Source: a virus. Taken from it: a stretch of 64,000 nt of DNA. Below are positions 12,666-64,000 of this stretch, piece after piece. The position numbers and the translations under genes were made by a program. The notes under the pieces were generated by a model. That model was not told the DNA's origin. It did no database searches and worked only from the letters and a program-made list of their open reading frames with translations. The first letter of the stretch is position 1; every line of letters starts with the position of its first letter. Location of the stretch: positions 1 to 64,000 of the IMG/VR virus record IMGVR_UViG_3300019776_000194; one strand, given 5' to 3'.

Positions 12666-13178
12666 ATGACAACAGTATCACAAGTAGGAAACATTGACAG
12701 CAACGAGAAAGGCTCTGGTGCTCGTTACAATAGTGGGAAGCCTGATTATTCAATGTTGTTATTGAGTGATTTTGCGGAGTATATTGCCAGCACAGTGTCT
12801 TCAGATTTTTGTGACTTAACCAATGTGTTATTTCAACTTGGGGAGTTTCAGAAGACCCACAGTGCTGTAAACTTGGGGACAATCTTACAGATTCTTGGAG
12901 ACGATGCTATAGAAGAATCTACGCATGTGTTCACTTACGGAGCAGCTAAGTATAAGAAATTTAATTGGATGAAGGGTATGCAGTGGAGTGTTCCTTTAGC
13001 ATGTGCAGTACGTCACACGTTGGCAATCATTAATGGTGAAGAAGTTGATGCAGAGTCTGGACGCAAACATTTGGGACATATTTGCTGTAACGTAATGATG
13101 CTAATTCACTATACGCAATACTACAAAGAAGGTAATGATTTGCCTCCACGAGAGTTGTTTGAGGACAGTTATGAGTAG
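12666..13178 (+). CDS. dATP/dGTP diphosphohydrolase-domain protein (DUF5664-like)
   Basis: GxRYNxGKP, YGAAKY..NWxKG, RH, DxESGxxHLxH..CN motifs. Confidence 0.8.
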   Translation: MTTVSQVGNIDSNEKGSGARYNSGKPDYSMLLLSDFAEYIASTVSSDFCDLTNVLFQLGEFQKTHSAVNLGTILQILGDDAIEESTHVFTYGAAKYKKFNWMKGMQWSVPLACAVRHTLAIINGEEVDAESGRKHLGHICCNVMMLIHYTQYYKEGNDLPPRELFEDSYE

Positions 13179-13637: not shown

Positions 13638-13927
13638 AACGAACAGTGAAAGAATTATTGCTCAAAGATTTTAATCTAGACGGATACACTGTCGGAGCTG
13701 CTGTAGATTTATTAAACAATTTTAACAGAGATGCTAAAATAGAATTTCTAACTCGATGGGAGTATGATACGTGCTTTGAGATTGAGTTAGTCCGTGAGCA
13801 AACAGATGAAGAGTATGCTTCAGAGCTTGCCAAGAAACAAGCGGAAGAGACAGCAGAGAAAGTAAGAGAGTATGAAGCGTATTTGAAGTTGAAGGCTATC
13901 TACGACAAACTCGATGAAAATGTTTGA
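13634..13927 (+). CDS. hypothetical protein
   Basis: AAGGAGAA RBS. Confidence 0.7.
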   Translation: MKRTVKELLLKDFNLDGYTVGAAVDLLNNFNRDAKIEFLTRWEYDTCFEIELVREQTDEEYASELAKKQAEETAEKVREYEAYLKLKAIYDKLDENV

Positions 13928-13952
13928 CAAGAAGTTTTAAAGTGTGTATAAT
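13924..13952 (+). promoter_or_regulatory. consensus sigma70 promoter upstream of ssb
   Basis: TTGACA-17-TATAAT. Confidence 0.85.
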
Positions 13953-23447: not shown

Positions 23448-25995
23448 ATGTGGACATTGATATTTGTTTATAGCTTGTATGGAAGTTATATTCCGCACAC
23501 AACAGGCAATAAAGCAGAGATATCGCACCCTGTCACTGTCACCAAAGACTTCAAGACAAAGCAAGGCTGTGAGTTTGTGCAGAAGTGGCTTGAACAGAAT
23601 ACTGTAAATAATCGTAAACGTATTGATGTATCTATTTGCATTAAAGGAGAATAACATGAGTAAATGGAAATTTACAGACTTTGGTGGTGAACTGTACGAG
23701 GCAGAATATTTAGAAAAGTTTGATTTCTTTGTTATCCAAAGAATTGATCGAGTTACAGACGTAACTTTTGAATTTGATGTTGAAGAAGTTGAAGATTACC
23801 TCAACAGAGGCATTTGGAGACGACTTTCATGAGCCTCAAAGAATTATGGCAACAACCTGAATACAAGGAAAGACTGAAAGAATCTCACAGGCTTGCAAGA
23901 GAACGTATTGCTAAAGTGTTTGATTCAGAATACGACTCCTTAGAGTCGTTAATTCTTGAGATGGCTGATAATCCTCACTATCCGCATAAATTTAAGTTCA
24001 AAGTGCTTAATGAGAGACGCGCTAAGAGTAAGAACAATAGGATTGGGAGTGGAAAGTATTACACCAAGTTTTGTGCGGAAGTGTCTCACTGTGGGAAGTA
24101 TTTTCTAATATCTCCTGAGAGTAGTGAACACGCTAAGGTTGTAATGTCTATGTCAGAGTTAAAGCGTTTGGAAGTTGTAAAGCGGGTGGTAGTCTTTATC
24201 AAGAACACCTATCGTAAATTCAAGAAGGAGGAATGAAATGGATTTTATTAAAGTATGGTGTGAATATGATATGTCTGGACAGTTTGGGGGCAACAGTAAT
24301 GAGGAAGTATTTATTGTGTCGGATTCACTGACAGATGCTGAAATTGATAGTCTAGTGTGTAAAGAACTCCAGTGGATTTGGAAGGATGTAATGGAGGAAG
24401 ATGCACAAGCTGAGAATATCATTGAAGCAAGGTTAGCTGGATGGGAATATATCACAATACAAAATTTGGGGAGTTAGTGATGAGTTTTATTGAGATGGTC
24501 TTTGCCGTAATGGTAGGTGGATTACTTGTAGTAAGCACAGTAGGTTATTGTCTGTACATTGGCTGGAAATGGGTTTGGAAAGACGTTATGAAGGATTTGA
24601 CTATAGCTTATGACGTATATTTGAAACGTAGTTATGAGACATTTGAGGAGAATAGATAATGGCAATCAAAAAGGAAACACTCACATCACTTCGTAAGGAT
24701 GTTAAAGAGTTGAAAGAGCAGTTGGAGAAAACTAATAAAGAACTTGAGTCTGTGAAGTCAAGTAAGGAGTATTACAATAAACGTGCTGAGAAAGCAGAAG
24801 CTGAGACGGAGAGCATCCACAGTTTATTAGATGTCTTACCAAATGCATTAGCTCGTAAAACTGTACCAGACCCTGAACAAACTTGGAAAGTGATTGAACA
24901 TAATTTGATGACTCGATTTGCATCATATTTAGCTTTGCGTTAGGAGAAGAAATGAATATTACAAAAGATACAGTCGTGACATTGACAGTAGGACAAATTC
25001 AAGCAGCATTCACAGAATGGGATAGACGTTATCGTGAAGACCCTGATGAGTTTATGAATGAAGCCTATCGTTTATTGTTTGAAGATGAGAATGACTATGG
25101 TGCAGAAGCTACTCCATATTTCTTGTCTGTTGTCGAAGATTTGAAAGGAGAATAAAGTGAATGACAAAGATTTTATCAAGGAATTGATATCAAGAGGAGC
25201 CAATGCATATGACGGGTACTTTCATTATGCACATTTGGTCGCGGTATTGCTTCCGAAGAACTTACATGGCTCGTTAGAACAGTTATTAACTAATCCTACT
25301 TGGGACGGAGATGTAATTAGTAAGACGTATAGAGATGGGTTATTGCAGTACGGTCTAGCAGTAAGAGTATGTGTAAATAATCAGCAAGGATTTACAGCAG
25401 CAACATACTTTGCGTACACAGTTATGAAAATAATTAACGATATTAAAATGGGCAAGATTGGTGCTTAACTAAGGAGAATAGATGACTAACAATAAAGGTA
25501 AATATCCTGTAGATGATTCAGGGGATATGATTGACTACCCTTGTAATTGGAATAAACCTGATAACTGGTTTGAAATGAAACCATTCTTTGCTACATTAGA
25601 ATACAAAGGATTTCAACAAGGACGCAGCAGTGTACGATTTATTTTACAAGACGTACAAACTGGTGTAACATACTCCTTAATGCGAAATAGCTTTGACACA
25701 TTCATTACAAAAGCTAAGAACGGCATTCTTGGAGCAGAGTATATTGTAGTAAAACGTGGAGCCAATTATGGCTTGGTATTAACAGAGGATTTATAAGGAG
25801 AATATAATGACAAAGTATTACAAAATCGAGGAACAAGAGTTGTTAAGTTTATTATCAGATAGTCGTGAACTAACAGCACTACAAGGAGCTGGTGTGGACA
25901 ATTGGTGTGGTTATGATGATCGTTGGGAAGGTATGGATGAGTGGGAAGAAACCACAGCAGAAGATTTACCAAGTATGTATGAAGAAGCTAACTAG
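23448..25995 (+). other. cluster of 10 small hypothetical ORFs (starts 23448, 23656, 23829, 24238, 24480, 24659, 24952, 25157, 25482, 25807)
   Basis: Contiguous + strand ORFs, most preceded by AGGAGAA; no recognisable motifs. Confidence 0.7.
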
Positions 25996-26305: not shown

Positions 26306-26668
26306 ATGAGTAACGTATTTGATGATTTAAAACAACGAGCATTAGAAATTAACAAGAAGCAAGAATTACTGAAAGATTACATTGCGCAATTAGAAGCTGT
26401 ACAAGCAATTGATGCAGAGATTAAAGAATTGCAAGAGAAGCGTAAAGCTGTCATTGCTGCTGATACAGAAATCTTTGCTTTGACAAATGAGATTAAAGAG
26501 TTGTCTAAAGAGTTTGGTAAGGCTGCTAAAACTGTGTCTAAAGGTTTCTCATTTAAACCTGCTGTCACGAAACAGTATGTTAAGGCTGCAATCAAGAGTG
26601 ATGCTGCTGTCGCAGTAGTAAAAGAGAAGGGGAATGCTTTTGCTTTCCTTGATAGTAAATTCAACTAA
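26306..26668 (+). CDS. coiled-coil protein, possibly DNA-binding
   Basis: AAGGAGAA RBS; helical, Lys/Ala-rich. Confidence 0.6.
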   Translation: MSNVFDDLKQRALEINKKQELLKDYIAQLEAVQAIDAEIKELQEKRKAVIAADTEIFALTNEIKELSKEFGKAAKTVSKGFSFKPAVTKQYVKAAIKSDAAVAVVKEKGNAFAFLDSKFN

Positions 26669-33313: not shown

Positions 33314-33342
33314 ATTATATCATGTTTATAGTGAAATGTCAA
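33314..33342 (-). promoter_or_regulatory. consensus sigma70 promoter
   Basis: Minus strand TTGACA-17-TATAAT. Confidence 0.8.
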
Positions 33343-51992: not shown

Positions 51993-52060
51993 ATTTATTT
52001 CCTTTTAATTAGTTGTGGCAGATTGCCATTTTATTGAAGGCTTATATCCAGATGTTCTGG

Positions 52061-52786
52061 TCAAAGCTTACTGCTGAATACAAGCCAATCTTCATCCTCA
52101 AGAGGATTCCAACCTGCTTTGATATTTTTATAAATCACAGCTAACTTAGAGTAAGTTGTATCAAACTCTTTTGCTAGTTTTCTGCTTCCAATCGTGTTAT
52201 CTTGGGTGATTCTGTTAAATACTTTGTCAGCAATCTTCCAAACTTCGATTGATGCATTGGGTTTATTCCAAGGCTTTATTAGTCTATTAGCTTCTGAAGC
52301 TTTTGAAATGTTTATTGAATTATCCCTCTTCTTAGCTAGATTACTCATCAACTTTAAAGTTTCCTCTGAGTGCTTGTAATTTCTAGCAAGGGATGCTACA
52401 CTCATGCGAATCTTTGTCTCTTCAGATGCAACCCTACCTTTTTGAGACTTAGACATTTTCGCCCTAGACTCGGCAGAGAAAACTCTACCTCTGTTTATCT
52501 CAGTCCCACCAATAGATACGTTATATCCAATACTAGGAGTTGGTCTAAGTTTATACTCTAGCTCTAGACAATACTCATAATCAGCTTGAACAATAGTGTC
52601 ACAAACAATGTCGTCACCGTACTTTCTCATTGCATTATGTACTGGAAGATTGCTACCGCTTCTAACTGCATGTAAGTGTTGGGTAAATCGAGTACGTGCT
52701 CCTTTACAGGAAATACCGATGTACCCTTCATTAAACATATCTGTTTGCGTCTTAGAGTGAATCCAATAAACACAGCTTTTATTCAT
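52061..52786 (-). CDS. GIY-YIG homing endonuclease with NUMOD3-like repeats
   Basis: VYWI...GYIG, RFxQH, GYN, SAESRAKMS and SEETKIRMS repeats. Confidence 0.82.
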   Translation of the reverse strand: MNKSCVYWIHSKTQTDMFNEGYIGISCKGARTRFTQHLHAVRSGSNLPVHNAMRKYGDDIVCDTIVQADYEYCLELEYKLRPTPSIGYNVSIGGTEINRGRVFSAESRAKMSKSQKGRVASEETKIRMSVASLARNYKHSEETLKLMSNLAKKRDNSINISKASEANRLIKPWNKPNASIEVWKIADKVFNRITQDNTIGSRKLAKEFDTTYSKLAVIYKNIKAGWNPLEDEDWLVFSSKL

Positions 52787-52787
52787 A

Positions 52788-53303
52788 TTACTTAGCAGAG
52801 TATTTCTCTGCAAATGCTTTTTCTAAGGACTGAACTTGATCTAACTCAACAACGTTCGCTTCTGCTGCCACGCCAGTTTCTTGAAACAGGGGGCTAGAAG
52901 CCTCTGTCGCTAATGCTGTTGCTTTCGCATCAACAATAAGGTTGAATGTAGCGTCATCTAAAGACTCTGTAGCAGCCATTAAAGCTTCTGCTTTTTCGTC
53001 CCCTACAAATGCTACAATACGTTCTTTACGTGCTGTCATTTTTGCAGTATGAGCATCTACTTCCAATTGTTTCTTAGCTGCGTCTGCTGCTGTTAAAGCT
53101 GCTTGAGCTACTTCTAATTGGGATGTCAGTTCTGCAAAAGAAGCTTCCAAAGAAGCATACTTAGTTGACAGTTCTGAGAATTGAGCTACTTGAGCTTCAA
53201 GAGTTGTTTTGGTAGTAGTGAGTTCAGTAGCAAGCTCTGCTGCAGACATCTCCACATCACCTTCTTTTTCTTTGTTCATGAGTTTTTGAATACCTTTTAG
53301 CAT
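52788..53303 (-). CDS. capsid scaffolding protein (putative)
   Basis: Coiled-coil, Ala/Glu-rich, directly after protease. Confidence 0.7.
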   Translation of the reverse strand: MLKGIQKLMNKEKEGDVEMSAAELATELTTTKTTLEAQVAQFSELSTKYASLEASFAELTSQLEVAQAALTAADAAKKQLEVDAHTAKMTARKERIVAFVGDEKAEALMAATESLDDATFNLIVDAKATALATEASSPLFQETGVAAEANVVELDQVQSLEKAFAEKYSAK

Positions 53304-54175
53304 TACATGGTTCCTTTTTGTTTATCTACTACATATTTGACAAATTCTTTATTTGTCATAATTCCTGTTACTAATCCGTTTGATAACGAGTCTTCTGCAT
53401 CAAACACCTCTGCTTCAAAACCTTTAATATCAGATATTGAAAGTCCTGTATACTTTGCTACGTGGTCTGTAAACTCATTGTTAAGTTTGTCTACTGATTT
53501 CTGCAAACTTTCCAAGAAGCTCTTCTTAAATGCCCCTGTCTCATCGAATGGGACTTTGTTTTCGCCAGAAGTAATATAAATACGTTTATATCCTTCCATC
53601 TCCATTGCCTTAGAAGTATCAAGCAGGGAAATTACGCAACCAATTGAACCACTAGAAGCCGAAGGATTAATGTAAAGCTCATCACAAACAGCAGCAATCG
53701 CATACGCAGCAGAACAAGCCATTGTGTCAATGTACCCAAGTAAAGTCACACCTTCTTCGTCACACATCTTGCGAATTTCTTCTACCGTTTCAAATACATG
53801 TGAAGCTTCCCCACCTCCTGAGGAGAAATTCATGATGATTGTTGTAGCACCATCTTCAATCGCACTTTCAACATCGTCTTGGAGTGATTGATAACTTGTA
53901 CCAACCTCTCCACATATTGTCTCTACTGGTTTGTAAGTTAAAGTCCCACAAACATCAATCACCACAATAGGAAGTGGACTTTCATCAAAATCATCCATAT
54001 CATCAGGTGTATCTTCCTCTTCTGGAGAATCATCTCCCATAGGAATTAGCATCTGTATACCCTTAGAATTACGAGCCTCTAAGTAATCTAAAATAACATC
54101 AAACGCCTGAGTTGTGATAAGATGGGGTGTATTATGTATTTTTGTCGAGAGCCTTAAGAGGCTATGTTTTGGCAT
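53303..54175 (-). CDS. prohead protease, S49 family
   Basis: SGGGE, ACSAAYAIA, GSIG, GENK motifs. Confidence 0.9.
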   Translation of the reverse strand: MPKHSLLRLSTKIHNTPHLITTQAFDVILDYLEARNSKGIQMLIPMGDDSPEEEDTPDDMDDFDESPLPIVVIDVCGTLTYKPVETICGEVGTSYQSLQDDVESAIEDGATTIIMNFSSGGGEASHVFETVEEIRKMCDEEGVTLLGYIDTMACSAAYAIAAVCDELYINPSASSGSIGCVISLLDTSKAMEMEGYKRIYITSGENKVPFDETGAFKKSFLESLQKSVDKLNNEFTDHVAKYTGLSISDIKGFEAEVFDAEDSLSNGLVTGIMTNKEFVKYVVDKQKGTM

Positions 54176-54858
54176 GAAGCCTCCTTATAATTATCTAACC
54201 AAACAGAATAACAGTTATCTTCACTAGGATTCCAACCTGATTTTATTTTGTTTACAACTTTCATAGCAGAGTCGGGCGTTATGCCGAATTCTTTTGCCAC
54301 TGAGCGTCTTCCAATAACTTCACCCTTTGAAAACTTTGCGTAAATATCTAAAGCCAAAGACCAACAATATTTATTAGAGTGAGGATGCTCCCAAGGATTC
54401 TCAAAAGTCATGACAGCCTTACCAATTACTCTCATTCTGGCTAAGTGTTCCTCAGCTACTTTTCTTCCAGTTCTTTTACTGGCAGATTTTTGAATAGCAT
54501 CTGCTGACATTTTCTTGCCAGTATTTATAACCCTCAACTTTTCAACAGCTTCTTTAGAAAGTTTCCTTCCCTCATTCCTAGACTCACCTCCAGCACATAT
54601 ATTCCATGCAATATTAGGTTTACTTCGATAAGCCCATTCTAATAAGTTACAGAATTCTGAGTCATCCTCTGCTAAAATAGTCACTTTAAAGTCGGGATGT
54701 TTTCTCATAGCATTATAAAGCGTATTTTTACAACCTTTTCTAAGCATGTGCATGTGACCGCTCATCCTTTTATTTAAAGACCTAGTAGTAACACCTATAT
54801 AGCCTTGAGTTTTTGGGTTAGTGTGATCTGGACTATGAATCCAATATAAAATTGCCAT
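54154..54858 (-). CDS. GIY-YIG homing endonuclease (paralog of the 52061 ORF)
   Basis: LYWI...GYIGVT, RMxxH, WN..GG; C-terminal IKxGWNPxED shared with paralog. Confidence 0.82.
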   Translation of the reverse strand: MAILYWIHSPDHTNPKTQGYIGVTTRSLNKRMSGHMHMLRKGCKNTLYNAMRKHPDFKVTILAEDDSEFCNLLEWAYRSKPNIAWNICAGGESRNEGRKLSKEAVEKLRVINTGKKMSADAIQKSASKRTGRKVAEEHLARMRVIGKAVMTFENPWEHPHSNKYCWSLALDIYAKFSKGEVIGRRSVAKEFGITPDSAMKVVNKIKSGWNPSEDNCYSVWLDNYKEASCQNIAS

Positions 54859-54861
54859 TCA

Positions 54862-56373
54862 TCACCCCTTATTGTTAGCATTTTGTGCCGAATTGTCTTT
54901 TCCACCTTTATTAGATGTACTCGTACCACCATTGACAAGACCTGTCCCAACTGCCATACCCTCTGCGGAACTAGATGATTTACCTGCCAATGTGGTAGAT
55001 AGGTTATCAACGTCTACTGGTGCGTTTTCATCTAAAAGTTTGAATCCACCAATTTCACGAATCTTATTCAATACGTCGCGGGTAACTTCTATACCACCAA
55101 CACTGAACACACGTTGCACAAACTTGGAGAACTCTTCTAAACTTGTAGAACTGACATCTTTAAATTTAATTTGTGGAAGCTCTGCTAAGTCCCATCCGTT
55201 TAATGACCACAACTGCTGTACTAAATCCTTGTTCAATGCATTTGCAATTTCACCTAGTCTGTAACTAACAGCCATTGCTAGTAAATTTGTGTCACCATCC
55301 TGTAAACTCAACGACCCAGCAGTATCACTACCCATCTTGACAGCATCACATGACAACACAGACAAAATATTTGCTTGCAATGTCTTAATGATTTCGAGTA
55401 CATTATAGGCTTTACCGCCTTTGGACTCTAACAGTGATACATTGAATAGTTTGCCTTTAGTATCAGGGTCATAAGCCATTGGGAATACAATTCCTCGTTG
55501 CTGACCACTTGCTAAGTCATCTACTATCTTACGGCAAACCTCGTACATTGCTTTTTGGTCATCGGATGCGTCTGGAGCCATGTACTGCGGAGGAATCTCT
55601 AATAGCGGGAGTCCTTGTGTATCTTTGGCAACACCTGTCATCATATTATCTGTAAGCAATGTTAGTTGCTTATAAGCTAAATATGCTGCTTTCAGGATGC
55701 TGTTACCTTCTGGATTACCATTCGTAGGGTCTACGTTGAATAGGATGAATTTCTCACGAGGGATTTTAATTAGACCATTCTCGTCCATGAGGTTAGAGAA
55801 TCTATACCCATTTTCTAAGTTAGCTAGTGACTGAGATACACCGATAAGTTCTCTACCATCTTCTGAGAAGTTCCACTTTTCAATAGTAGCTTGAGGTCGT
55901 GTGCGTAATGCTTTAATACCTACAAGTCCATCGTTATACTTACTTCCGTTAGAACGTAAACGTCTGCGGTAGATTTTCTCTGAAATATGAAAGCCATATT
56001 CTAATACAGGGAAAGTGTTCTGCAATGTTTGCTGGAAAGTGTCTTCCATATCGTGCAGACAAGAATGTAAGAACTTCGCTCGTTCTCTATGCTTAGGACT
56101 ATCATCAAAAGGCTCTACATACATTTCTGCACGATTCATGAGCATTCTGATAGCATTCATCCCGATAGCCACGGGAGGTGACAACCTCATTTCATCTACT
56201 ACTTTGATCCTTGCTGGCATACGAAAAGCTTGATTAGCTTCTTCGTAAATTCTGCCATTAGAAGTTTTTATTACGTTAAATCCTTGCGCACCTAACTTAA
56301 TACGTGGTATAATAGTGCCACTGTCAGGTTGCAGAGCTGTTGAAACGCCATCAGGCGAGTTCGCTTCTGGCAT
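54862..56373 (-). CDS. portal protein
   Basis: 503 aa between terL and protease; YGFxxxEK, NPEGxSIL. Confidence 0.85.
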   Translation of the reverse strand: MPEANSPDGVSTALQPDSGTIIPRIKLGAQGFNVIKTSNGRIYEEANQAFRMPARIKVVDEMRLSPPVAIGMNAIRMLMNRAEMYVEPFDDSPKHRERAKFLHSCLHDMEDTFQQTLQNTFPVLEYGFHISEKIYRRRLRSNGSKYNDGLVGIKALRTRPQATIEKWNFSEDGRELIGVSQSLANLENGYRFSNLMDENGLIKIPREKFILFNVDPTNGNPEGNSILKAAYLAYKQLTLLTDNMMTGVAKDTQGLPLLEIPPQYMAPDASDDQKAMYEVCRKIVDDLASGQQRGIVFPMAYDPDTKGKLFNVSLLESKGGKAYNVLEIIKTLQANILSVLSCDAVKMGSDTAGSLSLQDGDTNLLAMAVSYRLGEIANALNKDLVQQLWSLNGWDLAELPQIKFKDVSSTSLEEFSKFVQRVFSVGGIEVTRDVLNKIREIGGFKLLDENAPVDVDNLSTTLAGKSSSSAEGMAVGTGLVNGGTSTSNKGGKDNSAQNANNKG

Positions 56374-56414
56374 GTTTATTGCTCCTTGTAATGCTTATTA
56401 TGTTTATGGTCGTA

Positions 56415-56443
56415 ATTATACCACAAAAGTGTCTTGTTGTCAA
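56415..56443 (-). promoter_or_regulatory. consensus sigma70 promoter for portal operon
   Basis: Minus strand TTGACA-17-TATAAT with TG extension. Confidence 0.85.
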
Positions 56444-56461
56444 GATGTTTCTGTAGTATGA

Positions 56462-58133
56462 TTATATAGTTGGTATTGGGGATGGTCTAGTAAAGGACGG
56501 TAAACTGAAGGTCGGAAGTGTGTGGGTTCGCATCAACGCCTTACATGCCGTACCAGTTGCGTCCCAATAATCGTCCTTCTGCTGTCGCTTTCCATCTACA
56601 AAATCTTCTAATTCTGATAACAGTGGCTCAGTATCCCAACTTCCATCATCTAGAATTTTGACAAAACCTGCCTCAGCTAATGTCAAGAATGGCTGCATTC
56701 TGTGTAGTTTACTTTTTGTACCGCCAGACTTATCAATTCTTGCATCGACACCAGCTTCAATTAATGTCTTAACAAAAAACATAGTGGCTGCTTTAGCTGC
56801 TACACCTACGTCTTCAGGTAAGTACACTGCAGGTGAATGTCCTATAGCCTTATCTCTACGGTCTGTTTCTGCAATGTGTTCCATTACACCGTTAATTAGA
56901 GACCTGTATCGTTCTCCGTGATGGATAATGTAATAGCCCGATTTTGTCTTAGACATCATTACAGATGCAGTCCAGTCAGGGTCTGGATAAGCTTCAGAAG
57001 GTAAACTACCTGCAATATCCATACCACGAACTGTTGCTACAATGTCATCAGGAAGTTCTGTAATTACTTCGCACCAATCTCTTTTAAAAAATCCTCTTGA
57101 CTCTTCTTTCGCATGCCACGACCCTAAGTAGAGACGTTCACGTTCAGTGCGCTTCAAGTTCTCCAAACGAGCTACGTAGTTTGGATTCAAGATTTTCATG
57201 ATGGGGTTATCTTTAACCGTAGCAGAAATATAAGTATATGTTTGAGCTTGGATTTTATCTCCATACTTCTCAATCAACTCTTCTTTTGTATCTGCTGTTA
57301 CTGTCACACCGCCATAAGTAGCGTAGTATCTCTCTTTACCAGACAATTCAGGAATGGGAATACCTGTTTCCATATCTAAATACGGCTGTACGAATTGGTA
57401 AAGGTAGGAGGCTCTTGATGGGTTAGCTGTACAGATAAGTTGGTGAGGAGCTTGTGCTTTAGAGCGAATACGAGACTCTAGGTATTTGATTTGAGTTTCA
57501 CTATGCCATTGAGCTTCATCGAAACAAACTAGTGAGAATTGCCCACCGTCAAAGTTGTTAATATCCCTATCTGCTTGACACACTTTAAACTGCACTTGTG
57601 CTCCACTTGGGAATGTGGCTGTCATCTGTGGATGTGTCTTAAACTTTGCTCCGTAATCTTTCCACATATCTTGTGCTTCCATGAACAAACCACCAGCTTG
57701 TGAAAGCTGTGTGGATGTCTCACGAATGAATACACCTCTAAAATATGGGTCGTGAATGTATTTTAGAATTAACATTAACGCTTGGTGCGATTTGCCAGAA
57801 CCTGCCATCTGACGTATTCAAAAGGGGTCGTTACACCCTTCCCGCTTTATTCAAGCTGCTGAAAGTCGCCTTTCAGATTAGACTATATCTTCTGACTCCC
57901 CTGTTTCCACTCACTTGAGTGTACGGCTTTCGCCTAGTCGTTGAACCTTCCTGCAAACAGGCTTGGCTGCGGATTGTCTCTGTGAGAGTTTCCCGCAATT
58001 GAAGGGATGTTTTTAACGTGGAGGCACAGGATTATCTACCACCACCGAATATCACGAAATTAGACTTGCAATTCAGAAACTTCCTGTGAGCTTCTGAAGC
58101 AGGTGCTAATACTTTACGTTCTTTTTTGCTCAT
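56462..58133 (-). CDS. terL: terminase large subunit, two exons (58133-58038 and 57805-56462; 479 aa spliced)
   Basis: Splicing restores Walker A FGGG|AGSGKS; Walker B FDEA, TANP coupling motif, nuclease GMDIA...DDYWDA; AAGGAG RBS before 58133. Confidence 0.92.
57806..58037 (-). mobile_element. group I self-splicing intron, 232 nt, no ORF
   Basis: P AATTGCGGGAAA, Q AATCCGCAGC, R GTTCAACGACTA, S AAGATATAGTCT; P1 with U.G pair; P10 CCUGU/GCAGG; terminal G. Confidence 0.92.
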
Positions 58134-58220
58134 TTTACTCCTTTAAATTCTGATAGCACACCACACTAACCTTGCTGCTATCTTAGGAGAACATATCTTC
58201 TCCTCTCACCTCAAAACAAA

Positions 58221-58314
58221 ATTGCAAACAGAACGGCTCTACAACGTCACAGGAGAAAGCACGAAGGAGGAGAACGTGCCAAGGAGAATGACGGAGAGCC
58301 GTTGTATTTACAAT
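58221..58314 (-). ncRNA. putative structured small RNA displaying three UUCUCCU (anti-SD-like) segments
   Basis: Nested stems AUUGUAAA/UUUGCAAU, AACGGCUCU/AGAGCCGUU, CGUCA/UGACG, GCACG/CGUGC; a G.U pair favours the minus strand. Confidence 0.6.
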
Positions 58315-58372
58315 CTAAAGAGGTTTATAAGGAACTCCTCAATCCTACACGATGGCTGCAACCTACGAATAT

Positions 58373-58445
58373 TGGATGCGGTCGCCTGACTTGAACAGGA
58401 CTGAAAGCTTATGAGACTTTCGTGCAACCTTTACACTACCCCGCA
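58373..58445 (-). tRNA. tRNA with CAU anticodon (Met or Ile2), imperfect acceptor stem
   Basis: D arm GTGT/GCAC, anticodon arm AAAGT-CTCATAA-GCTTT, T arm CCTG-TTCAAGT-CAGG, encoded CCA. Confidence 0.75.
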
Positions 58446-58536
58446 ATTGTTCTTGCAGACCTCTCATCTACTCGTATGTTTTAATCTAAACATATAAAAT
58501 CAAGGGTTGGCTGATTCCATCCCATATTCTTTACAA

Positions 58537-58911
58537 TTAATCAACTTCAGCGATATTCTCAAAATCTAAAAGTGGTTGACTTTCATCATCTTCATCATTA
58601 TCATCTACAATAATACCGCCATTACGTTGAATACTTAAAAGCAACTCATGATGTTTTGCTGCAAACTCTTTATTCCTAGCTTTCTCAGCAGACTCAACTT
58701 TAATAGACTCCATGTGCATAGTCATAAGAAACTTTGCTGCTTCCATCCTATCTTTCCTACTTGCTGTAGGGTCATCTCTTACAGATACCAAGTATGCCAT
58801 AGATGGTTTATTTTCCTTGTTTAGCAATCGCTTCTGTATAGTAATCGAGTTCTTCTTGCTCTGAACACCTGTCCTTACTATCTCTCCTACTGAATTATCT
58901 ACATCACTCAT
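58537..58911 (-). CDS. putative terminase small subunit
   Basis: First gene of late arm, upstream of terL; helical with acidic tail. Confidence 0.5.
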   Translation of the reverse strand: MSDVDNSVGEIVRTGVQSKKNSITIQKRLLNKENKPSMAYLVSVRDDPTASRKDRMEAAKFLMTMHMESIKVESAEKARNKEFAAKHHELLLSIQRNGGIIVDDNDEDDESQPLLDFENIAEVD

Positions 58912-58943
58912 ACATCTCCTGCTATTATTGTTCTGTTACGCTC

Positions 58944-58972
58944 ATTATACATACAAGATAGTCGTTTGTCAA
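58944..58972 (-). promoter_or_regulatory. consensus sigma70 promoter starting the morphogenesis arm
   Basis: Minus strand TTGACA-17-TATAAT. Confidence 0.85.
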
Positions 58973-59014
58973 GCCCCTTGCAAGAATATTAACAAATTTC
59001 TTAGAAGAAAGCAC

Positions 59015-59043
59015 TTGATTTTATTCACTTTGGGTGCTATAGT
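59015..59043 (+). promoter_or_regulatory. divergent sigma70-like promoter
   Basis: TTGATT-17-TATAGT with TG extension. Confidence 0.6.
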
Positions 59044-59075
59044 TTAATTTCTAGAAATGCTGACAAGGAAATTTA

Positions 59076-59285
59076 ATGGATAACACTATTGAAATTACAA
59101 AACATGGAGATTGGGAAGTAGCAACAAAGAAATGTAAACTTGGGTATACTTCATGGGCAAAGAGGGGTAAAATTCAAGGAACAAATGCCGTAAATGAAAC
59201 AGGACAACATGTATGGTTCAATTTTGGTAATACTCGTGAAGAAGCTCGTAAAGCAATAACAAAAGAACTCAATATAGGAGAATAA
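59076..59285 (+). CDS. hypothetical protein
   Basis: AAGGA RBS after promoter. Confidence 0.65.
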   Translation: MDNTIEITKHGDWEVATKKCKLGYTSWAKRGKIQGTNAVNETGQHVWFNFGNTREEARKAITKELNIGE

Positions 59286-59385
59286 TATGGAAGAATACAC
59301 AGAATTAGAATACCTAGATGTAAACGACTTTGTAGAGCACATGCTCGAAGAAGATGAATTTGATAATTAATAGAAAGGAAACACA

Positions 59386-59694
59386 ATGCAAGAAAAAACA
59401 ATCACAGGAATGAACTTTGTACGCTTCATGCACGAAGTAGTATCAGCAGTAGAATCTGGCTATACACTCACACTGGAACCTCAACACGCTCCTGTAGGAT
59501 ACCCAAATTACAGTGTTACACTCGTACAATTGCAAGAGGATGAAAGCCTGTCAGTACAAGAGAAAGCAATTCTACAGGAGGTGGTAAATGAAACTAAAGA
59601 GGAAGTTCCTGCTAAAGAAGTTCCAAATACTACTAAAGAATCTCCTGTCGAAGAAGCTCCGAAGAAACAGCAAGGACGACCTGCAAGGAAATAA
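59386..59694 (+). CDS. hypothetical protein with basic GRP tail
   Basis: AAAGGAAA RBS; ends KKQQGRPARK. Confidence 0.65.
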   Translation: MQEKTITGMNFVRFMHEVVSAVESGYTLTLEPQHAPVGYPNYSVTLVQLQEDESLSVQEKAILQEVVNETKEEVPAKEVPNTTKESPVEEAPKKQQGRPARK

Positions 59695-59695
59695 A

Positions 59696-59860
59696 ATGAA
59701 ACGTGTAACGTATCGTCTTGATAACGATGTCTATGACGTTGTAGAAACTACATCAGAATGGCTACTTATCGAATACACAGACGATGATTTTAATACAACT
59801 CTGAAACTAGAGTCTCACAAATATAGAAAGGAAGATGACGATGGGGGCGACAGCCGTTAA
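59696..59860 (+). CDS. hypothetical protein
   Basis: AAGGAAA RBS before ATG 59696. Confidence 0.55.
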   Translation: MKRVTYRLDNDVYDVVETTSEWLLIEYTDDDFNTTLKLESHKYRKEDDDGGDSR

Positions 59861-60092
59861 TGAAATCACTGGTAAGATTATTAAAAGTGGTGTAGACAAT
59901 TACAAAGACTATTGTGCTAATTTTGATTTGATTGGCAGTGGTGTACAGTATAAGCAACCTGAGACATTGTTTCCAGTAACTGTGCGAATTCCTAAAGATG
60001 TGTATAAAGCTTTCACAGAATTAGCAATTGAAACTGGAACAACTTTAGAGAAGTTGTTAGAGAAACAAGTTCTTAGTAATTTTAATAAATAG
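59835..60092 (+). CDS. putative ribbon-helix-helix DNA-binding protein
   Basis: C-terminal VTVRIPKDVYKAFTELAIETGTTLEKLL. Confidence 0.55.
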   Translation: MTMGATAVNEITGKIIKSGVDNYKDYCANFDLIGSGVQYKQPETLFPVTVRIPKDVYKAFTELAIETGTTLEKLLEKQVLSNFNK

Positions 60093-60160
60093 TATTTTGT
60101 AGTAATAGCCAAGTATGCATCAAGTGCTTGGCAGTTTAACTTTAATGTGGAGGTATCTAC

Positions 60161-60901
60161 ATGGCTCGCGTAATTAGCAAAAAAACTAAAAAATCCCCTG
60201 AAACTGCACCTGTAATCAAAGAGAAATTCTTGGAACAGCGTAAACTTGAAATTGAAAGTAAACCAATTGTTCCGATGAACGAACGGCAAGCCGAATACTT
60301 CAAAGCTATCAAAGACTATGATTTGATTGTTGCAACAGGTTTCGCAGGTTCCTCGAAGACATTTATTGCAACTTGTATGGCTGCAGACGCATGGCGAACA
60401 GGGGTTTGTAATAAGATTGTACTTACTAGACCCTCTGTGTCAGACTCTAAGAGTCTTGGTTATTTTGGTGGTGATAAGGACATGAAAGTGAAGAACTGGA
60501 TTATGCCAATGTTATCTGTGTTGTATCAACGCATGGGTAAAGATGTAGTTGATGAAGCAATTGCAGATGGTAATATTCAACTACAGCCTTTAGAGACAAT
60601 CAAAGGGATGAGTTATGGAAGAGGTACATGGGTTATAGCGGATGAAGTCCAAGACTGCAAGATTTCTGAAATTAAGTCTATTATCACTCGTGGTGGTGGT
60701 TGCAAGATGATTTTATGTGGAGATGTTGCACAATCTGCTTTAAACAGTGATAGCGGGCTTGCCATTTTTTCAAGAATTATTGAAAAGAATCCTCGCTTAA
60801 AAGAGTCTGTGGCACGTATTGACTTTGACTCTTACGAGCATATTGTACGCAGTAAGACATGTAAAGATTTGATTATTGCATTTGATAAATCAGGGTACTA
60901 A
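60161..60901 (+). CDS. phoH: PhoH-family ATPase
   Basis: GFAGSSKT, LTRP, LGYFGG, DEVQD, GDVAQS, IVRS motifs. Confidence 0.9.
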   Translation: MARVISKKTKKSPETAPVIKEKFLEQRKLEIESKPIVPMNERQAEYFKAIKDYDLIVATGFAGSSKTFIATCMAADAWRTGVCNKIVLTRPSVSDSKSLGYFGGDKDMKVKNWIMPMLSVLYQRMGKDVVDEAIADGNIQLQPLETIKGMSYGRGTWVIADEVQDCKISEIKSIITRGGGCKMILCGDVAQSALNSDSGLAIFSRIIEKNPRLKESVARIDFDSYEHIVRSKTCKDLIIAFDKSGY

Positions 60902-60902
60902 C

Positions 60903-61700
60903 ATGAAGATGTCCTCCGCACAACAGAAATCTATCAAAACAAAAGCTACCTTTCTTGGAAAAACTTTTAAAAGTAAAGACTGTGGGGATTTTACAGTATT
61001 AGACTATTTAAATTCTAAACAGGTACTCATACAATTTAATAAAACAAAGTCTCAAAAATGGTGTGAATTGAAAGCAGTCAGAAGTGGCGGTGTTAAAGAC
61101 CCTAATTTCCCATCTATATACGGAGTTGGATTTATAGGAGAGGGTGAATTCTCTTCTAGATTTGTGGGCGGTGCAAATACACCGTGTTATGACTCATGGA
61201 GAGGGATGCTCAGACGTTGCTACTCTGAAGAAAGTCTTATTAAAAGTCCTACTTATGCAGGATGCTCTGTGGCAGAAGAATGGCACAACTTTCAAAACTT
61301 TGCTGCATGGTATTATGAAAACTTAAAAGGTGTATCTGGAAAAGTTCACCTAGATAAAGACATTCTCAAGAAAGGGAACAAGATTTACTGCAAAGAAAAT
61401 TGCTGCCTTGTTAACGTCCAAATCAATTCATTATTTACTGGAGCTAGTATAGTAAATAGGGGTAAGTACCCACTAGGGGTGTTTCTAAGGAAAAGAAATG
61501 GAATGTTTGTTGCGCAAGTAACTAAAGGAAATGGTGCGCAGGAATTTTTAGGTGAGTATAATACACCTGAACAAGCTTTTTATGTCTATAAAAAGCACAA
61601 AGAAGATTTTGTAAAGCAAGTCGCAAACAAGTACAAAGACAGTATTAGAGAAGATGTTTATTTAGCTCTAATGAACTACACTGTCTCAATCGAAGATTAA
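60903..61700 (+). CDS. HNH-type homing endonuclease
   Basis: YGVG, WRGMLRRCY, YAGCSVAEEWHNFQNF, LDKDIL, FLGEY; paralog of the 20359 ORF. Confidence 0.8.
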   Translation: MKMSSAQQKSIKTKATFLGKTFKSKDCGDFTVLDYLNSKQVLIQFNKTKSQKWCELKAVRSGGVKDPNFPSIYGVGFIGEGEFSSRFVGGANTPCYDSWRGMLRRCYSEESLIKSPTYAGCSVAEEWHNFQNFAAWYYENLKGVSGKVHLDKDILKKGNKIYCKENCCLVNVQINSLFTGASIVNRGKYPLGVFLRKRNGMFVAQVTKGNGAQEFLGEYNTPEQAFYVYKKHKEDFVKQVANKYKDSIREDVYLALMNYTVSIED

Positions 61701-61709
61701 GGAGAACCC

Positions 61710-62483
61710 ATGAAAGAAAAATTCAACAAACAATTAGCTAAGAACCCATTCTTTGACGATAACAAAGTCCCTGTTAGCTATTCTCCAAGCAAATGTGGGC
61801 GTTTCACTGTAGACATCTATGACTATATCGAATCTCCTTCACAGTTCTCCGACATGATAGATGCCCTAGGTATGATGGAGCAAGATGATGAAATGGTAGT
61901 TAATTTACAATCAGGTGGAGGTTGTCTTAACACTACTGATACACTTCTACATGCTCTACGTAAGACAAAGGGACAAGTTCACTTTATTGCTACAGGATTC
62001 AATGCCTCTGCTGCAACAATTCTCTTGCTGGACGCACCATCCTTTGAACTCAGTGAAGACTTCACAGCTCTGATACACTGTGGGTCGCTTGGAGACGCTG
62101 GCAACTTAAATGAGATGCGCCAGAGTGCAGCTTTCCACATCTCACGTATGGAGAAATTGTTACGTAATACTTACGCTGGATTTATGTCTGAGAAAGAAAT
62201 TGAAGACATGCTGAATGGCAAGGATTTGTTACTTGATAGTGAACAGTGGTGTGAACGACACGAACAGCGCAACAAGTGGATGCAAGAGCAAGTAGAGAAG
62301 TTCGAGAAGGCTGCTCAGAAGGCGTTAAAAGCCCCTAAGAAACCACGTAAGAAGAAAGTTGATAGTGAGGTAGCCAAAACTGATACGAAGGCTTCTGAGA
62401 GCTTTAAAGGCTTGGAAACAGGCTTTGATATGCCAGAAGAAGAGTTGATGTTTTTGGAGAAAGCTGTAAATACTAAGAAGTAA
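61710..62483 (+). CDS. ClpP-like protease
   Basis: SGGG, ASAA (catalytic Ser), LIH, D pattern. Confidence 0.75.
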   Translation: MKEKFNKQLAKNPFFDDNKVPVSYSPSKCGRFTVDIYDYIESPSQFSDMIDALGMMEQDDEMVVNLQSGGGCLNTTDTLLHALRKTKGQVHFIATGFNASAATILLLDAPSFELSEDFTALIHCGSLGDAGNLNEMRQSAAFHISRMEKLLRNTYAGFMSEKEIEDMLNGKDLLLDSEQWCERHEQRNKWMQEQVEKFEKAAQKALKAPKKPRKKKVDSEVAKTDTKASESFKGLETGFDMPEEELMFLEKAVNTKK

Positions 62484-62487
62484 TTTA

Positions 62488-62523
62488 GAAGCCTGCTACT
62501 TAACTGTAGCGGGCTTTTATTTT
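62488..62523 (+). terminator. Rho-independent terminator
   Basis: AAGCCTGCTAC/GTAGCGGGCTT stem followed by a T-run. Confidence 0.8.
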
Positions 62524-62536
62524 ATGGAGAATTATG

Positions 62537-62565
62537 TTGACAAGGATAATTGAGTTGTGTAATAT
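62537..62565 (+). promoter_or_regulatory. sigma70-like promoter
   Basis: TTGACA-17-TAATAT. Confidence 0.6.
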
Positions 62566-62604
62566 ACGTGCTGTCGCTGTGACAAACAGTTTAAAGGGGG
62601 AAAT

Positions 62605-62802
62605 ATGATTTGGATTGTCTTATACTTAGTGTCTAGCTTAATAACATTAATTCTAATTATAAAAGAGGAATATGATAGAGGTATTGATTTGAAATTAGGT
62701 TGGTTACTGCTGTTTATTATAGTCTGCCTTGTTCCAATTGTAAATTTAGCTTGGTTGAGTAGTGTCAGAGAAATAACTATTTTGAAAGGAAAGAAACAAT
62801 GA
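62605..62802 (+). CDS. small two-TM membrane protein
   Basis: Two hydrophobic segments, PIVN motif. Confidence 0.6.
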   Translation: MIWIVLYLVSSLITLILIIKEEYDRGIDLKLGWLLLFIIVCLVPIVNLAWLSSVREITILKGKKQ

Positions 62803-62956
62803 ACGTGTATTACTATTACAGGAAACAAGACGGAACACTAGGTAAATTACTGGATGAATCTCCAGAGGCTATCGAGAATATTGATGATACATTAGCATTT
62901 GCTAAAGAGGAGTGGAAGTCTACTCGTGTGTTGGCTGTTATTGAAGGGGGTAAAGA

Positions 62957-63253
62957 GTGAGTAAAACATTACAGGAGCGTGCTATAAATAAACTTAACTC
63001 TATGACTTCAGATGAATTAGTAGAATCAATGAGAAAGCACGGATTTAAATTTGAAGGAGATGAAATGACTCGAAAACTAGCGACTGTCAGAGATTTACAC
63101 AAACTCTGTACCTCGTTAATTGAAGATGGATTTATAGAGGCTGAATTATCATTTAATGATGAATATGGAATAGACTTAGGAGATTTTGGTTACATAGACT
63201 ATGAAGTATTCAAATCTGTAAATGGTAAGACATATATTGATATTCAACCTTAA
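62957..63253 (+). CDS. hypothetical protein
   Basis: ORF with G-rich RBS, GTG start. Confidence 0.6.
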   Translation: MSKTLQERAINKLNSMTSDELVESMRKHGFKFEGDEMTRKLATVRDLHKLCTSLIEDGFIEAELSFNDEYGIDLGDFGYIDYEVFKSVNGKTYIDIQP

Positions 63254-63262
63254 GGAGAGCGT

Positions 63263-63565
63263 ATGAGTTACAAGCACGTAAAACTATTAACAGAAGCTGT
63301 GAAGCTTCCTCGTACAAAAGCTAATAACGACCAGCTCTGCACAAAGATTGAAGAGATCATTGCTTCTGTGCAATACACTACTAAAGAATACACATATACA
63401 CAAGGACGACAGCTCAAGAATATGATATGCTTGTGGATTACTGATAATATGACGACAGTAGGTATGACTTTTGAAGCTACTAAGCAATTTAAACAAGGCA
63501 CGACTCGCGTTAAGTGGGTTGAGAGTGTACTAAAACCGTTAGCATTACAATTGGAGGATTTATGA
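63263..63565 (+). CDS. hypothetical protein
   Basis: AAGGAG RBS. Confidence 0.65.
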   Translation: MSYKHVKLLTEAVKLPRTKANNDQLCTKIEEIIASVQYTTKEYTYTQGRQLKNMICLWITDNMTTVGMTFEATKQFKQGTTRVKWVESVLKPLALQLEDL

Positions 63566-63990
63566 TTAAAGAGTTTCAAGGGGAGTTCCGCTGGTTGAGT
63601 AACTTCACACAAGTTGCTATTGAGCTAGACGGTAGAATGTTTCATTCTGTAGAACATGCCTATATGTCTGCTAAAAGTGATGATGAAGAGTGGAAAGACT
63701 TTTGTGAGAATACTTTCTCAGCAGGGCAAGTGAAGAAAGCCAGTAGAAGCATTACTTTGGTAGATAATTGGGAAGATATTAAAGTAGATATCATGCGGGA
63801 ATGTATAAATCAAAAGTTTAACCAGCCATTCTTTAAAGCCAAACTACTAGCAACTGGAGATACCATCATTCAGGAAGGTAACATGTGGAATGATAAATTC
63901 TGGGGAGTTTGCCTTAAAACAGGTAAAGGACAGAATATCTTAGGAAAGCTCATAATGGAGAAACGAGAGTCTTTGAAAGGTAATAAATGA
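63562..63990 (+). CDS. NADAR (YbiA-like) family protein
   Basis: LSNF, SVEHAYMSAK, W...K..IM, KFxQ, LLATG, DKFWG, GQNxLGKLIM motifs. Confidence 0.9.
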   Translation: MIKEFQGEFRWLSNFTQVAIELDGRMFHSVEHAYMSAKSDDEEWKDFCENTFSAGQVKKASRSITLVDNWEDIKVDIMRECINQKFNQPFFKAKLLATGDTIIQEGNMWNDKFWGVCLKTGKGQNILGKLIMEKRESLKGNK

Positions 63991-64000
63991 AACCAGAATC

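Follow-up and report, generated by a model that had tools for sequence, protein, structure and literature searches.

The cuckoo (alpha-r14) small RNAs (sRNAs) of Alphaproteobacteria, i.e., NfeR1 and CcsR1-4/RSs0680, are described as two to four adjacent hairpins of 24-50 nucleotides (nt) with short linkers and with CCUCCUCCC in each loop (PMC4615179), and the three redundant anti-Shine-Dalgarno (anti-SD) motifs of NfeR1 silence messages by pairing over about 8 nt at the ribosome-binding site (RBS) (PMC10746234, PMC4615179). In phage T4, the nuclease RegB, acting with ribosomal protein S1, cuts GGAG, mostly in early translation-initiation regions (TIRs), with the consensus GGAGRAYARAA (PMC3014915). 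The loops of c4, a phage RNA of P1 and P7, pair around an RBS (PMC12197685), and SprX (RsaOR), from Staphylococcus aureus converting phages, pairs at translation-initiation signals through a CU-rich loop (PMC4005690). Phage tRNA islands have been known since the 1970s to contain small stable RNAs with no assigned function, such as rnaC and rnaD of T4 (PMC3014915, PMC4933390), and PAK_P3 makes two abundant RNAs of about 100 nt, sRNA1 and sRNA2, which are 91- and 12-fold higher late (PMC4933390). No general anti-SD regulator is named in the available part of a recent review on sRNAs from phages (PMC12197685), and the accessible text of the literature yielded no description of an anti-SD sRNA element in a virulent phage. 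Here we describe a hairpin RNA on the minus strand, at 58218..58318 of the window, i.e., the first 64 kb (64,000 nt) of IMG/VR record IMGVR_UViG_3300019776_000194, an 84,394-bp genome of an uncultured freshwater phage (38.8% G+C, rated 98% complete). The hairpin is a real, conserved, non-coding structured RNA element of the minus strand and is uncatalogued. It is quite possibly, though short of probably, a multivalent anti-SD RNA that would occlude GGAG(A)-type RBSs, most likely in trans after excision from an operon transcript.

The hairpin and its three open segments are placed as follows.

58218..58318, minus strand: conserved hairpin RNA, 123.5 bits with covariance model R1, extending the 58221-58314 of the initial annotation
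58280..58288, minus strand: 5' strand of the internal loop, UUCUCCUUG, complement of AAGGAGAA
58264..58274, minus strand: apical loop, UUCUCCUCCUU, probability of being unpaired 1.00
58250..58258, minus strand: 3' strand of the internal loop, UUUCUCCUG, complement of CAGGAGAAA

The initial annotation had read the minus strand of 58221-58314 as four nested stems that leave three UUCUCCU segments unpaired, with a U.G pair in the outer stem and no described family to match. The sequence reads as given there, and folding bore out the rest: the minus strand forms a single nested hairpin at -38.6 kcal/mol, an energy equaled by none of 200 shuffles (mean -14.4 kcal/mol, z -9.06), and the four nested stems enclose a single apical loop and a symmetric internal loop. 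When 421 nt of context were folded the hairpin persisted, and the mean probabilities of being unpaired for the three open segments were 0.79, 1.00 and 0.79. On the minus strand TTCTCCT occupies 58282-58288, 58268-58274 and 58250/58251-58257, and it recurs 60 nt downstream of the hairpin, at 58185-58191; over the whole window it has 42 matches, when 9.9 +/- 3.4 were expected, and none of 100 shuffles reached 42. No Rfam family matched the hairpin, either at gathering scores or, over 58000-58600, at E values up to 10.

An alternative offered at the outset was that the RNA is made from the plus strand and presents GGA or GGAG loops, as a CsrA/RsmA-type sponge or a ribosome decoy. On that strand the three open segments do read as AGGAGAA-type words with GGA cores, but the evidence on strand contradicts this proposal, which we regard as very improbable. 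The plus strand of 58221-58314 folds at only -27.5 kcal/mol, and in eight of eight copies from related phages the sense (minus) strand was the more stable, by 4.9-14.8 kcal/mol. Model R1 scored 24-35 bits on the reverse strand versus 61-124 bits on the sense strand. The U.G pair of the outer stem is present, G.U or U.G pairs recur across copies (e.g., pair 4-102 is G.U in 8/9), and on the plus strand such pairs become A.C mismatches. A plus-strand RNA would also lie antisense to the packaging operon, and no CsrB/RsmY/RsmZ-type family matched in Rfam at E values up to 10.

Copies of the hairpin were gathered from related phages, whose loci are denoted here by L numbers and genomes by G numbers. 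Seven IMG/VR loci were reached through a 124-amino-acid (aa) open reading frame (ORF) that precedes the hairpin, and all carry the hairpin downstream of that ORF; L020 was reached through the large terminase gene, terL. Model R1 was built from four copies and recognized nine strong ones (61-124 bits), with a tenth on metagenome contig L188 (66.4 bits). In the nine-copy alignment, which was fitted to the model and so leans toward structure, 99.3% of the cells were paired and 16 of the 31 stem pairs had changed on both sides, i.e., by compensatory substitution; none of 500 shuffles matched this pairing, and slid controls paired at 36-49%. Single-sequence folds of the first eight copies, carried out independently, gave the same shape, and all ten copies form one nested hairpin of about 100 nt. 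Compensatory changes, G.U pairs and the greater stability of the sense strand together argue for a structured RNA on the minus strand. The copies are 95, 97, 100, 101 and 104 nt long; since these lengths do not keep to multiples of three apart, there is no conserved reading frame, as befits a non-coding element. Three complete hairpin-bearing relatives, searched whole, each held one copy.

The initial annotation had suggested Rfam and covariation analysis in related phages, and had asked whether the loops are conserved. As well as covariation of the fold, we found that the unpaired UCUCCU segments are retained. CUCC is kept in the 5' internal-loop segment of 8/9 aligned copies (the exception being L020) and in the 3' segment of 8/9 (L003 has UUUUCCU), while CUCCU is kept in the apical loop of all nine; L188 has the motif in all three places. 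The same data bear on a DNA-level explanation, in which the TTCTCCT repeats would bind the small terminase as a pac or cos-type site. The position of the element, between an ORF in the small-terminase position and terL, and its three direct heptamer repeats would suit such a site. Compensatory stem changes and G.U pairs are, however, signatures of RNA and not of a protein-bound duplex; moreover, the element shifts relative to the packaging genes, and in Pseudomonas phages it precedes the entire tRNA cluster. We find this explanation scarcely credible.

Wider searches extended the family little. Aligning the 124-aa ORF returned the same 7 viral loci and, in metagenome contigs, 4 loci of which one (L188) was new. 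The pattern CTCC-N5-9-TCTCCT-N15-32-TTCTCCT occurs in at least 119 stretches of viral contigs; among the 80 loci listed, R1 found a hairpin in one, an already known copy, and the remaining listed loci were rejected as chance matches in which R1 finds no hairpin. Among 18 further terL loci (L019-L036, among 21), R1 was strong in L020 and weak in L022 and L036. In the other 12 terL loci (terL about 50% identical), R1 and a scan for pyrimidine runs found nothing convincing, the one-loop form described next having no model of its own. The phage collection held no DNA relative of 58100-58560 (blastn) or of 52000-64000 (megablast).

In distant relatives the three segments are replaced, within the same tRNA island, by a single CU loop of 17-21 nt on a long stem. 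Such hairpins were found by the pyrimidine-run scan in L019 (genome G001), L021 and L031; that of L019/G001 folds at -38.2 kcal/mol (z -7.05) and lies 87 nt after a tRNA-Gly. L022 and L036 retain the apical CCUCCU-type loop alone. A cultured example is Pseudomonas phage ventosus (L191, 1081-1128; MG018930.1, about 12924-12971), whose hairpin has the apical loop UUCUCCUCCUUU, containing the same 11-mer as the apical loop of the window hairpin; it lies about 45 nt upstream of the first coding sequence (CDS) of the tRNA-terL operon, ahead of the whole tRNA cluster. In the related phages UAVern, vB_PF_Y1-MI and Bitten the loop is near-invariant (Y1-MI lacks one base) and both strands of the inner stem have changed, although covariation in this four-sequence alignment of cultured Pseudomonas phages is suggestive only. 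Two small minus-strand CDSs are annotated across the one-loop hairpin of Bitten. That the CU motif survives when the architecture changes points to the single-stranded CU word as the functional part.

These comparisons also bear on whether the hairpin is primarily an element of RNA processing or stability, i.e., an RNase III site, a 5' protective stem-loop of the terL mRNA after tRNA excision, or a weak terminator or pause, with the loops secondary. Several features fit. In L002 and L020 ARAGORN calls a tRNA-Gly(UCC) that ends 1-3 nt before the hairpin, and in L036 the hairpin overlaps the tRNA end; about 21 pairs, broken by single bulges, make up the lower stem; the 3' arm enters a short U-rich stretch in most copies; and the island, like the tRNA region of T4, mixes tRNAs and hairpins in a mosaic. 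As a terminator the hairpin is a poor candidate: where an intrinsic terminator has a G+C-rich stem, a small loop and a U tract immediately after, the hairpin has an A/U-rich outer stem, large loops and a U run that is short and partly paired and that L003, L019 and L021 lack; a scan of 57700-59400 gave no terminator-like site. A role in processing or stability would also leave unexplained why CUCC was retained in 27/30 of the open segments while 16/31 stem pairs changed, and why the CU loop outlived the switch from three segments to one loop. We consider it unlikely as the main function.

The words exposed by the hairpin are the complement of one of two SD types used by the phage. Gene starts were taken from a crude ORF caller that chooses by SD score, so that they are SD-biased, equally on both arms of the genome. 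AGGAGAA, which the initial annotation had named as the RBS of many plus-arm genes and as avoided by the structural genes, was indeed found within 20 nt upstream of 25 of the 84 plus-arm starts and of none of the 33 structural-arm starts (Fisher 1e-4). With the same 20-nt limit, GGAG preceded 61/84 plus-arm versus 7/33 structural-arm starts (Fisher 6.5e-7) and GGAGA 42/84 versus 1/33, while AAGGAA showed the opposite preference (7/84 versus 11/33, 0.0016). There are thus two SD dialects, the non-structural genes using mostly AAGGAGAA and most structural (virion) genes AAAGGAAA. The split is common to G001, G003, G004 and G005 and is weaker in G002. Given the two dialects, the RNA would be expected to damp the non-structural class.

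Calculated duplexes between the three loops and TIRs had medians of -9.4 to -10.1 kcal/mol for the plus arm versus -4.8 to -5.7 kcal/mol for structural genes, in keeping with complementarity of the segments to the non-structural SD type and not to the AAGGAA type found before most structural genes. The best loop outdid a 16S-type anti-SD motif by a median of 2.4 kcal/mol at plus-arm TIRs versus 0.8 kcal/mol at structural ones (p 0.002). GGAG is followed by two positions enriched in A (0.62-0.63), with which UUCUCC pairs and the 16S tail does not. In five of six genomes the loop word is the exact complement of the commonest SD 6-mers. This last point bears on the suggestion that the pyrimidine-rich strands are a decoy for, or recruiter of, a host or phage RNA-binding protein. 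Candidate binders include ribosomal protein S1, Rho, a cold-shock or KH-domain protein, or a factor that recognizes the 16S 3' tail. Three evenly spaced, accessible pyrimidine tracts on a rigid scaffold would suit such a protein. S1 is, moreover, a cofactor in the SD-directed early shut-off of T4, as reported in PMC3014915. What is conserved, however, is a specific word, UCUCCU or CUCCU, and not a mere pyrimidine run, and that word matches the SD 6-mers exactly; a protein decoy is in our view distinctly unlikely.

On the minus strand the order is a sigma-70 promoter, the 124-aa ORF, a tRNA-like element, a 48-nt module, the hairpin, two small hairpins and terL.

58944..58972, minus strand: sigma-70-type promoter, TTGACA-17-TATAAT, 12/12 by consensus scan, ahead of the 124-aa ORF
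58537..58911, minus strand: 124-aa ORF in the small-terminase position ('terS' by position only), RBS CAGGAGA
58377..58444, minus strand: tRNA-like element, possibly decayed, with CAU in the anticodon loop (Rfam RF00005, 35.6 bits, gathering score 29)
58152..58204, minus strand: two small hairpins in the terL leader, AGGAGAA-GAUAUG-UUCUCCU (58185-58204) and GAUAGCA...UGCUAUC (58152-58182)
56462..58133, minus strand: large terminase gene terL, running from 58133 (start of exon 1) to 56462 (end of exon 2) and interrupted by a group I intron
56415-56443, minus strand: further perfect TTGACA-17-TATAAT promoter by consensus scan
33314-33342, minus strand: further perfect promoter, same scan
13924-13952, plus strand: further perfect promoter, same scan

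The promoter at 58944..58972, a consensus match, likely marks the start of the hairpin-bearing transcript; GGCTTGACA and a -10-like box occur upstream of the 124-aa ORF in 7/7 relatives, and a consensus scan found no separate promoter between the ORF and the hairpin. The 84-kb genome has four perfect promoters, three of them in the structural arm, and sigma-70-like promoters lie in intergenic positions on both arms. Both arms thus seem to rely on promoters of this type, which would leave room for post-transcriptional temporal control. The initial annotation had placed the hairpin on the late transcript, which was an assumption and does not sit well with a perfect sigma-70 promoter at the head of the operon, kept in all seven relatives. 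It had also placed the hairpin just downstream of a tRNA. Rfam supports a tRNA match at 58377-58444, which ends 62 nt upstream, but a further module intervenes, and ARAGORN called no tRNA anywhere in the window. RNA contigs of relatives (two RNA and two DNA runs, compared over 56400-59100) gave none across 58221-58314, a result that supports no inference on expression either way; one covered 58363-58522 and then continued into unlike sequence. A search for sequencing runs listed 24, the best of which held 0.21 of the sampled words, and none reached half.

From these features we propose that the hairpin is transcribed on the minus strand together with the packaging genes, within the island of tRNAs and small hairpins, and that it would then be cut out of the operon transcript. 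Where it abuts the CCA end of a tRNA, tRNA 3' processing would create its 5' end. The long stem (about 27 pairs) would serve as a stable scaffold keeping the three UCUCCU segments single-stranded, and these would pair in trans, over 6-8 nt, with GGAG(A)-type SDs, keeping 30S subunits off those mRNAs. The expected result is lower translation of the non-structural class, and probably also of host mRNAs with strong SDs, with most virion genes spared. We infer the processing, abundance, timing, in vivo pairing and target set alike. Several features favor action in trans: the sites are three and redundant, the scaffold is very stable, the position varies freely with respect to the next gene, and the hairpin abuts on tRNA ends in L002, L020 and L036. 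We also considered on paper, and rejected, a triple helix in which the two internal-loop strands would clamp a purine target, since strand polarity allows only 6/8 matches.

Several observations weigh against an anti-SD function. Firstly, pairing over 6-8 nt needs an abundant RNA or a chaperone. Secondly, the 16S-type anti-SD motif shows the same trend as the loops (-8.7 kcal/mol for the plus arm versus -5.6 kcal/mol for structural genes), so that the split may partly reflect strong versus weak SDs. Thirdly, loop columns of the alignment have a mean identity of 0.76 versus 0.73 for stem columns, the core motif alone being fixed. Fourthly, no covariation between loop and target was seen across six genomes, because the loop sequence and the top SD 6-mers are both invariant, and the candidate hairpin of G002 matches one of the top three SD 6-mers. 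In addition, G001 shows the split while its hairpin is of another architecture, and ventosus has a one-loop hairpin but no clear split, with GGAG in 7/9 genes of its packaging/head block (crude calls, 49% GC). With perfect sigma-70 promoters at the head of the operon and in the structural arm, synthesis of the RNA could begin as soon as infection does. Finally, the seven of 33 structural-arm genes with GGAG-type SDs would be targets as well, among them the 124-aa ORF, terL, portal and protease genes, which are on the same transcript as the hairpin.

The last point could be turned into a different proposal, i.e., that the hairpin stays in the operon mRNA and throttles it in cis, its segments folding back on the SDs of the 124-aa ORF, terL, endonuclease ORFs and portal and thereby restricting the packaging enzymes to low, catalytic amounts. 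GGAG-type SDs do stand before the operon's first genes (CAGGAGA, AAGGAG, AAGGAG and AAGGAGG), and the CAGGAGA of the 124-aa ORF, a 7-nt complement of the 3' internal-loop strand, is kept in 7/8 copies. A throttle would also agree with the typical leader position of the one-loop hairpin in the four Pseudomonas phages, about 45 nt upstream of the first CDS, and with the failure to find a promoter of its own between ORF and hairpin. Yet the distance from hairpin to the next start codon ranges from about 90 to >400 nt, and the next gene varies, being either terL or an inserted endonuclease-like ORF. Three redundant sites on a very stable scaffold would make an unusual leader, and there was no compensatory change between loop and ORF SD: L008 has CAGGGGA with the same loop, and L003 an altered loop with the same SD. 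We judge regulation in cis to be improbable. The anti-SD reading, with action in trans, is coherent and testable; it is also unproven, and we hold it to be a serious possibility that falls somewhat short of an even chance.

No cultured phage is closely related; by protein, the best terL and portal identities, of about 41%, are to PAK_P3-type and ventosus/UAVern-type Pseudomonas phages. The 124-aa ORF matched no Pfam family, no PHROG and, by tblastn, nothing in the phage collection; its relatives are the seven IMG/VR loci, at 68-99% identity. Exon 2 of terL matches Pfam Terminase_6N (5.3e-21) and Terminase_6C, and the group I intron (Rfam match at 57859-58060, minus strand, 74.3 bits) lies just ahead of the Walker A motif. 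The intron site is uninterrupted in L003 and L004 and occupied in L007 and L008, so that the intron is present or absent among close relatives.

The tRNA/hairpin island between the 124-aa ORF and terL behaves like a cassette site. In L003, L004, L005, L007 and L008, shuffled hairpin modules, in varying order and subset, follow the hairpin (e.g., CAACAGUGUUUCGUCCCAUAUCU...CACUGUUG and UAUUCGCUAUU..AAUAGCGAAU), and endonuclease-like ORFs are inserted into the island in L002, L005 and L006. Between the tRNA-like element and the hairpin lies a conserved 48-nt module (58319-58366, minus strand; no Rfam match), which we read by eye as a short hairpin followed by an apparent H-type pseudoknot (AGGA...UCCU; loop GAGG with a downstream CCUC); a variant in L002 and L003 has both helices altered (GUCAGA/UCUGAC and GAGAAG/CUUCUC). 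The first small hairpin of the terL leader has changed on both stem sides in L003 and L008 (AGGAAGA/UCUUCCU), and its three-codon frame is not preserved in L002. The two-hairpin module is missing from L004 and is thus no obligatory partner of the main hairpin. Outside the window, at 75,804-75,843 of the genome (plus strand), a hairpin with an 8-nt loop, UUUCCUCU, directly follows a small plus-strand gene and looks like an ordinary post-gene hairpin.

The hairpin offers a concrete and falsifiable job for one tRNA-island RNA, tied to a measurable split between two SD dialects. The dialects, present across at least five related genomes, merit a study of their own whatever the role of the hairpin, and the one-loop versions in the cultured phages ventosus, UAVern, Y1-MI and Bitten give routine laboratory access. 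If the anti-SD reading were true, phages would be able to bring about by RNA the translational class switch for which T4 uses a nuclease, and SD dialects could predict gene timing in uncultured phages.

How, then, does the hairpin compare with described RNAs? Its resemblance to the cuckoo sRNAs lies in the display of several unpaired copies of one anti-SD word over freely varying stems. However, cuckoo RNAs are chromosomal and have their own promoter, whereas this element is phage-encoded inside a packaging operon; it is a single nested hairpin in 10/10 copies, with an apical loop and two internal-loop strands; and its word is UCUCCU, with no segment holding the 9-mer CCUCCUCCC. On an anti-SD reading it would work like the cuckoo family without being a member, the architecture and motif being different and Rfam giving no match. 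It likewise differs from CsrB/RsmZ-type sponges, in that its GGA words occur only on the disfavored plus strand.

Among phage RNAs, c4 has one specific target, the ant mRNA, and is in Rfam, whereas the hairpin has three generic anti-SD words and gave no c4 match. Like the excision proposed here, c4 RNA is cut from a longer transcript. No conserved, specific, co-transcribed target of the hairpin was found, the nearby AGGAGAA mini-hairpin being absent in L004. SprX, for which likeness was compared by the Rfam scan only, differs in coming from a temperate Firmicute phage, with a single loop and a host-gene target. Small RNAs derived from tRNA trailers, with 3'ETS-leuZ as the named example, begin where the tRNA 3' end is processed and persist as stable fragments; the hairpin begins 1-2 nt past a called tRNA-Gly in L002 and L020 and overlaps a tRNA-Gly end in L036, and in the window 62 nt separate it from the tRNA-like element.

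The tRNA-island RNAs are analogous in position. GenBank annotates the PAK_P3 sRNAs (NC_022970; L201) at 25349-25431 and 26345-26478, among tRNAs between a DUF5681 ORF and terL. The pair shows that the syntenic island, in a distant relative, gives rise to abundant RNAs of about 100 nt that increase late. T4 rnaC and rnaD and PAK_P3 sRNA1 and sRNA2 were nevertheless rejected as homologues and are positional analogues only: none folds with CU-rich anti-SD loops, and T4 rnaC and PAK_P3 sRNA2 are tRNA-like, the latter with a tRNA-like T arm.

The comparison with RegB is one of purpose. RegB sorts mRNAs by SD type for its phage, as the hairpin would, and the split here between GGAG(A) and no GGAG is of the same kind; RegB, though, is a protein nuclease that cuts, and what we propose is an RNA that masks. 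The 84,394-bp record has no match to REGB_T4 (PF10715) at E values up to 1, so that the split is not accounted for by a RegB homologue, and of its 73 GGAG sites, 2 match the T4 RegB consensus in full and 13 match its first eight positions. A bolder view, possible but doubtful, would make the hairpin an RNA-only counterpart of T4 RegB: as a multivalent mimic of the mRNA-docking tail of the ribosome, it would redirect ribosomes from non-structural and host mRNAs, led by GGAG(A), to virion mRNAs led by AAGGAA. On the same view, the tRNA islands of Felix-O1/PAK_P3-like phages, those of cultured Pseudomonas phages among them, would house a wider class of anti-SD RNAs, as yet undescribed, of which the hairpin would be one form.

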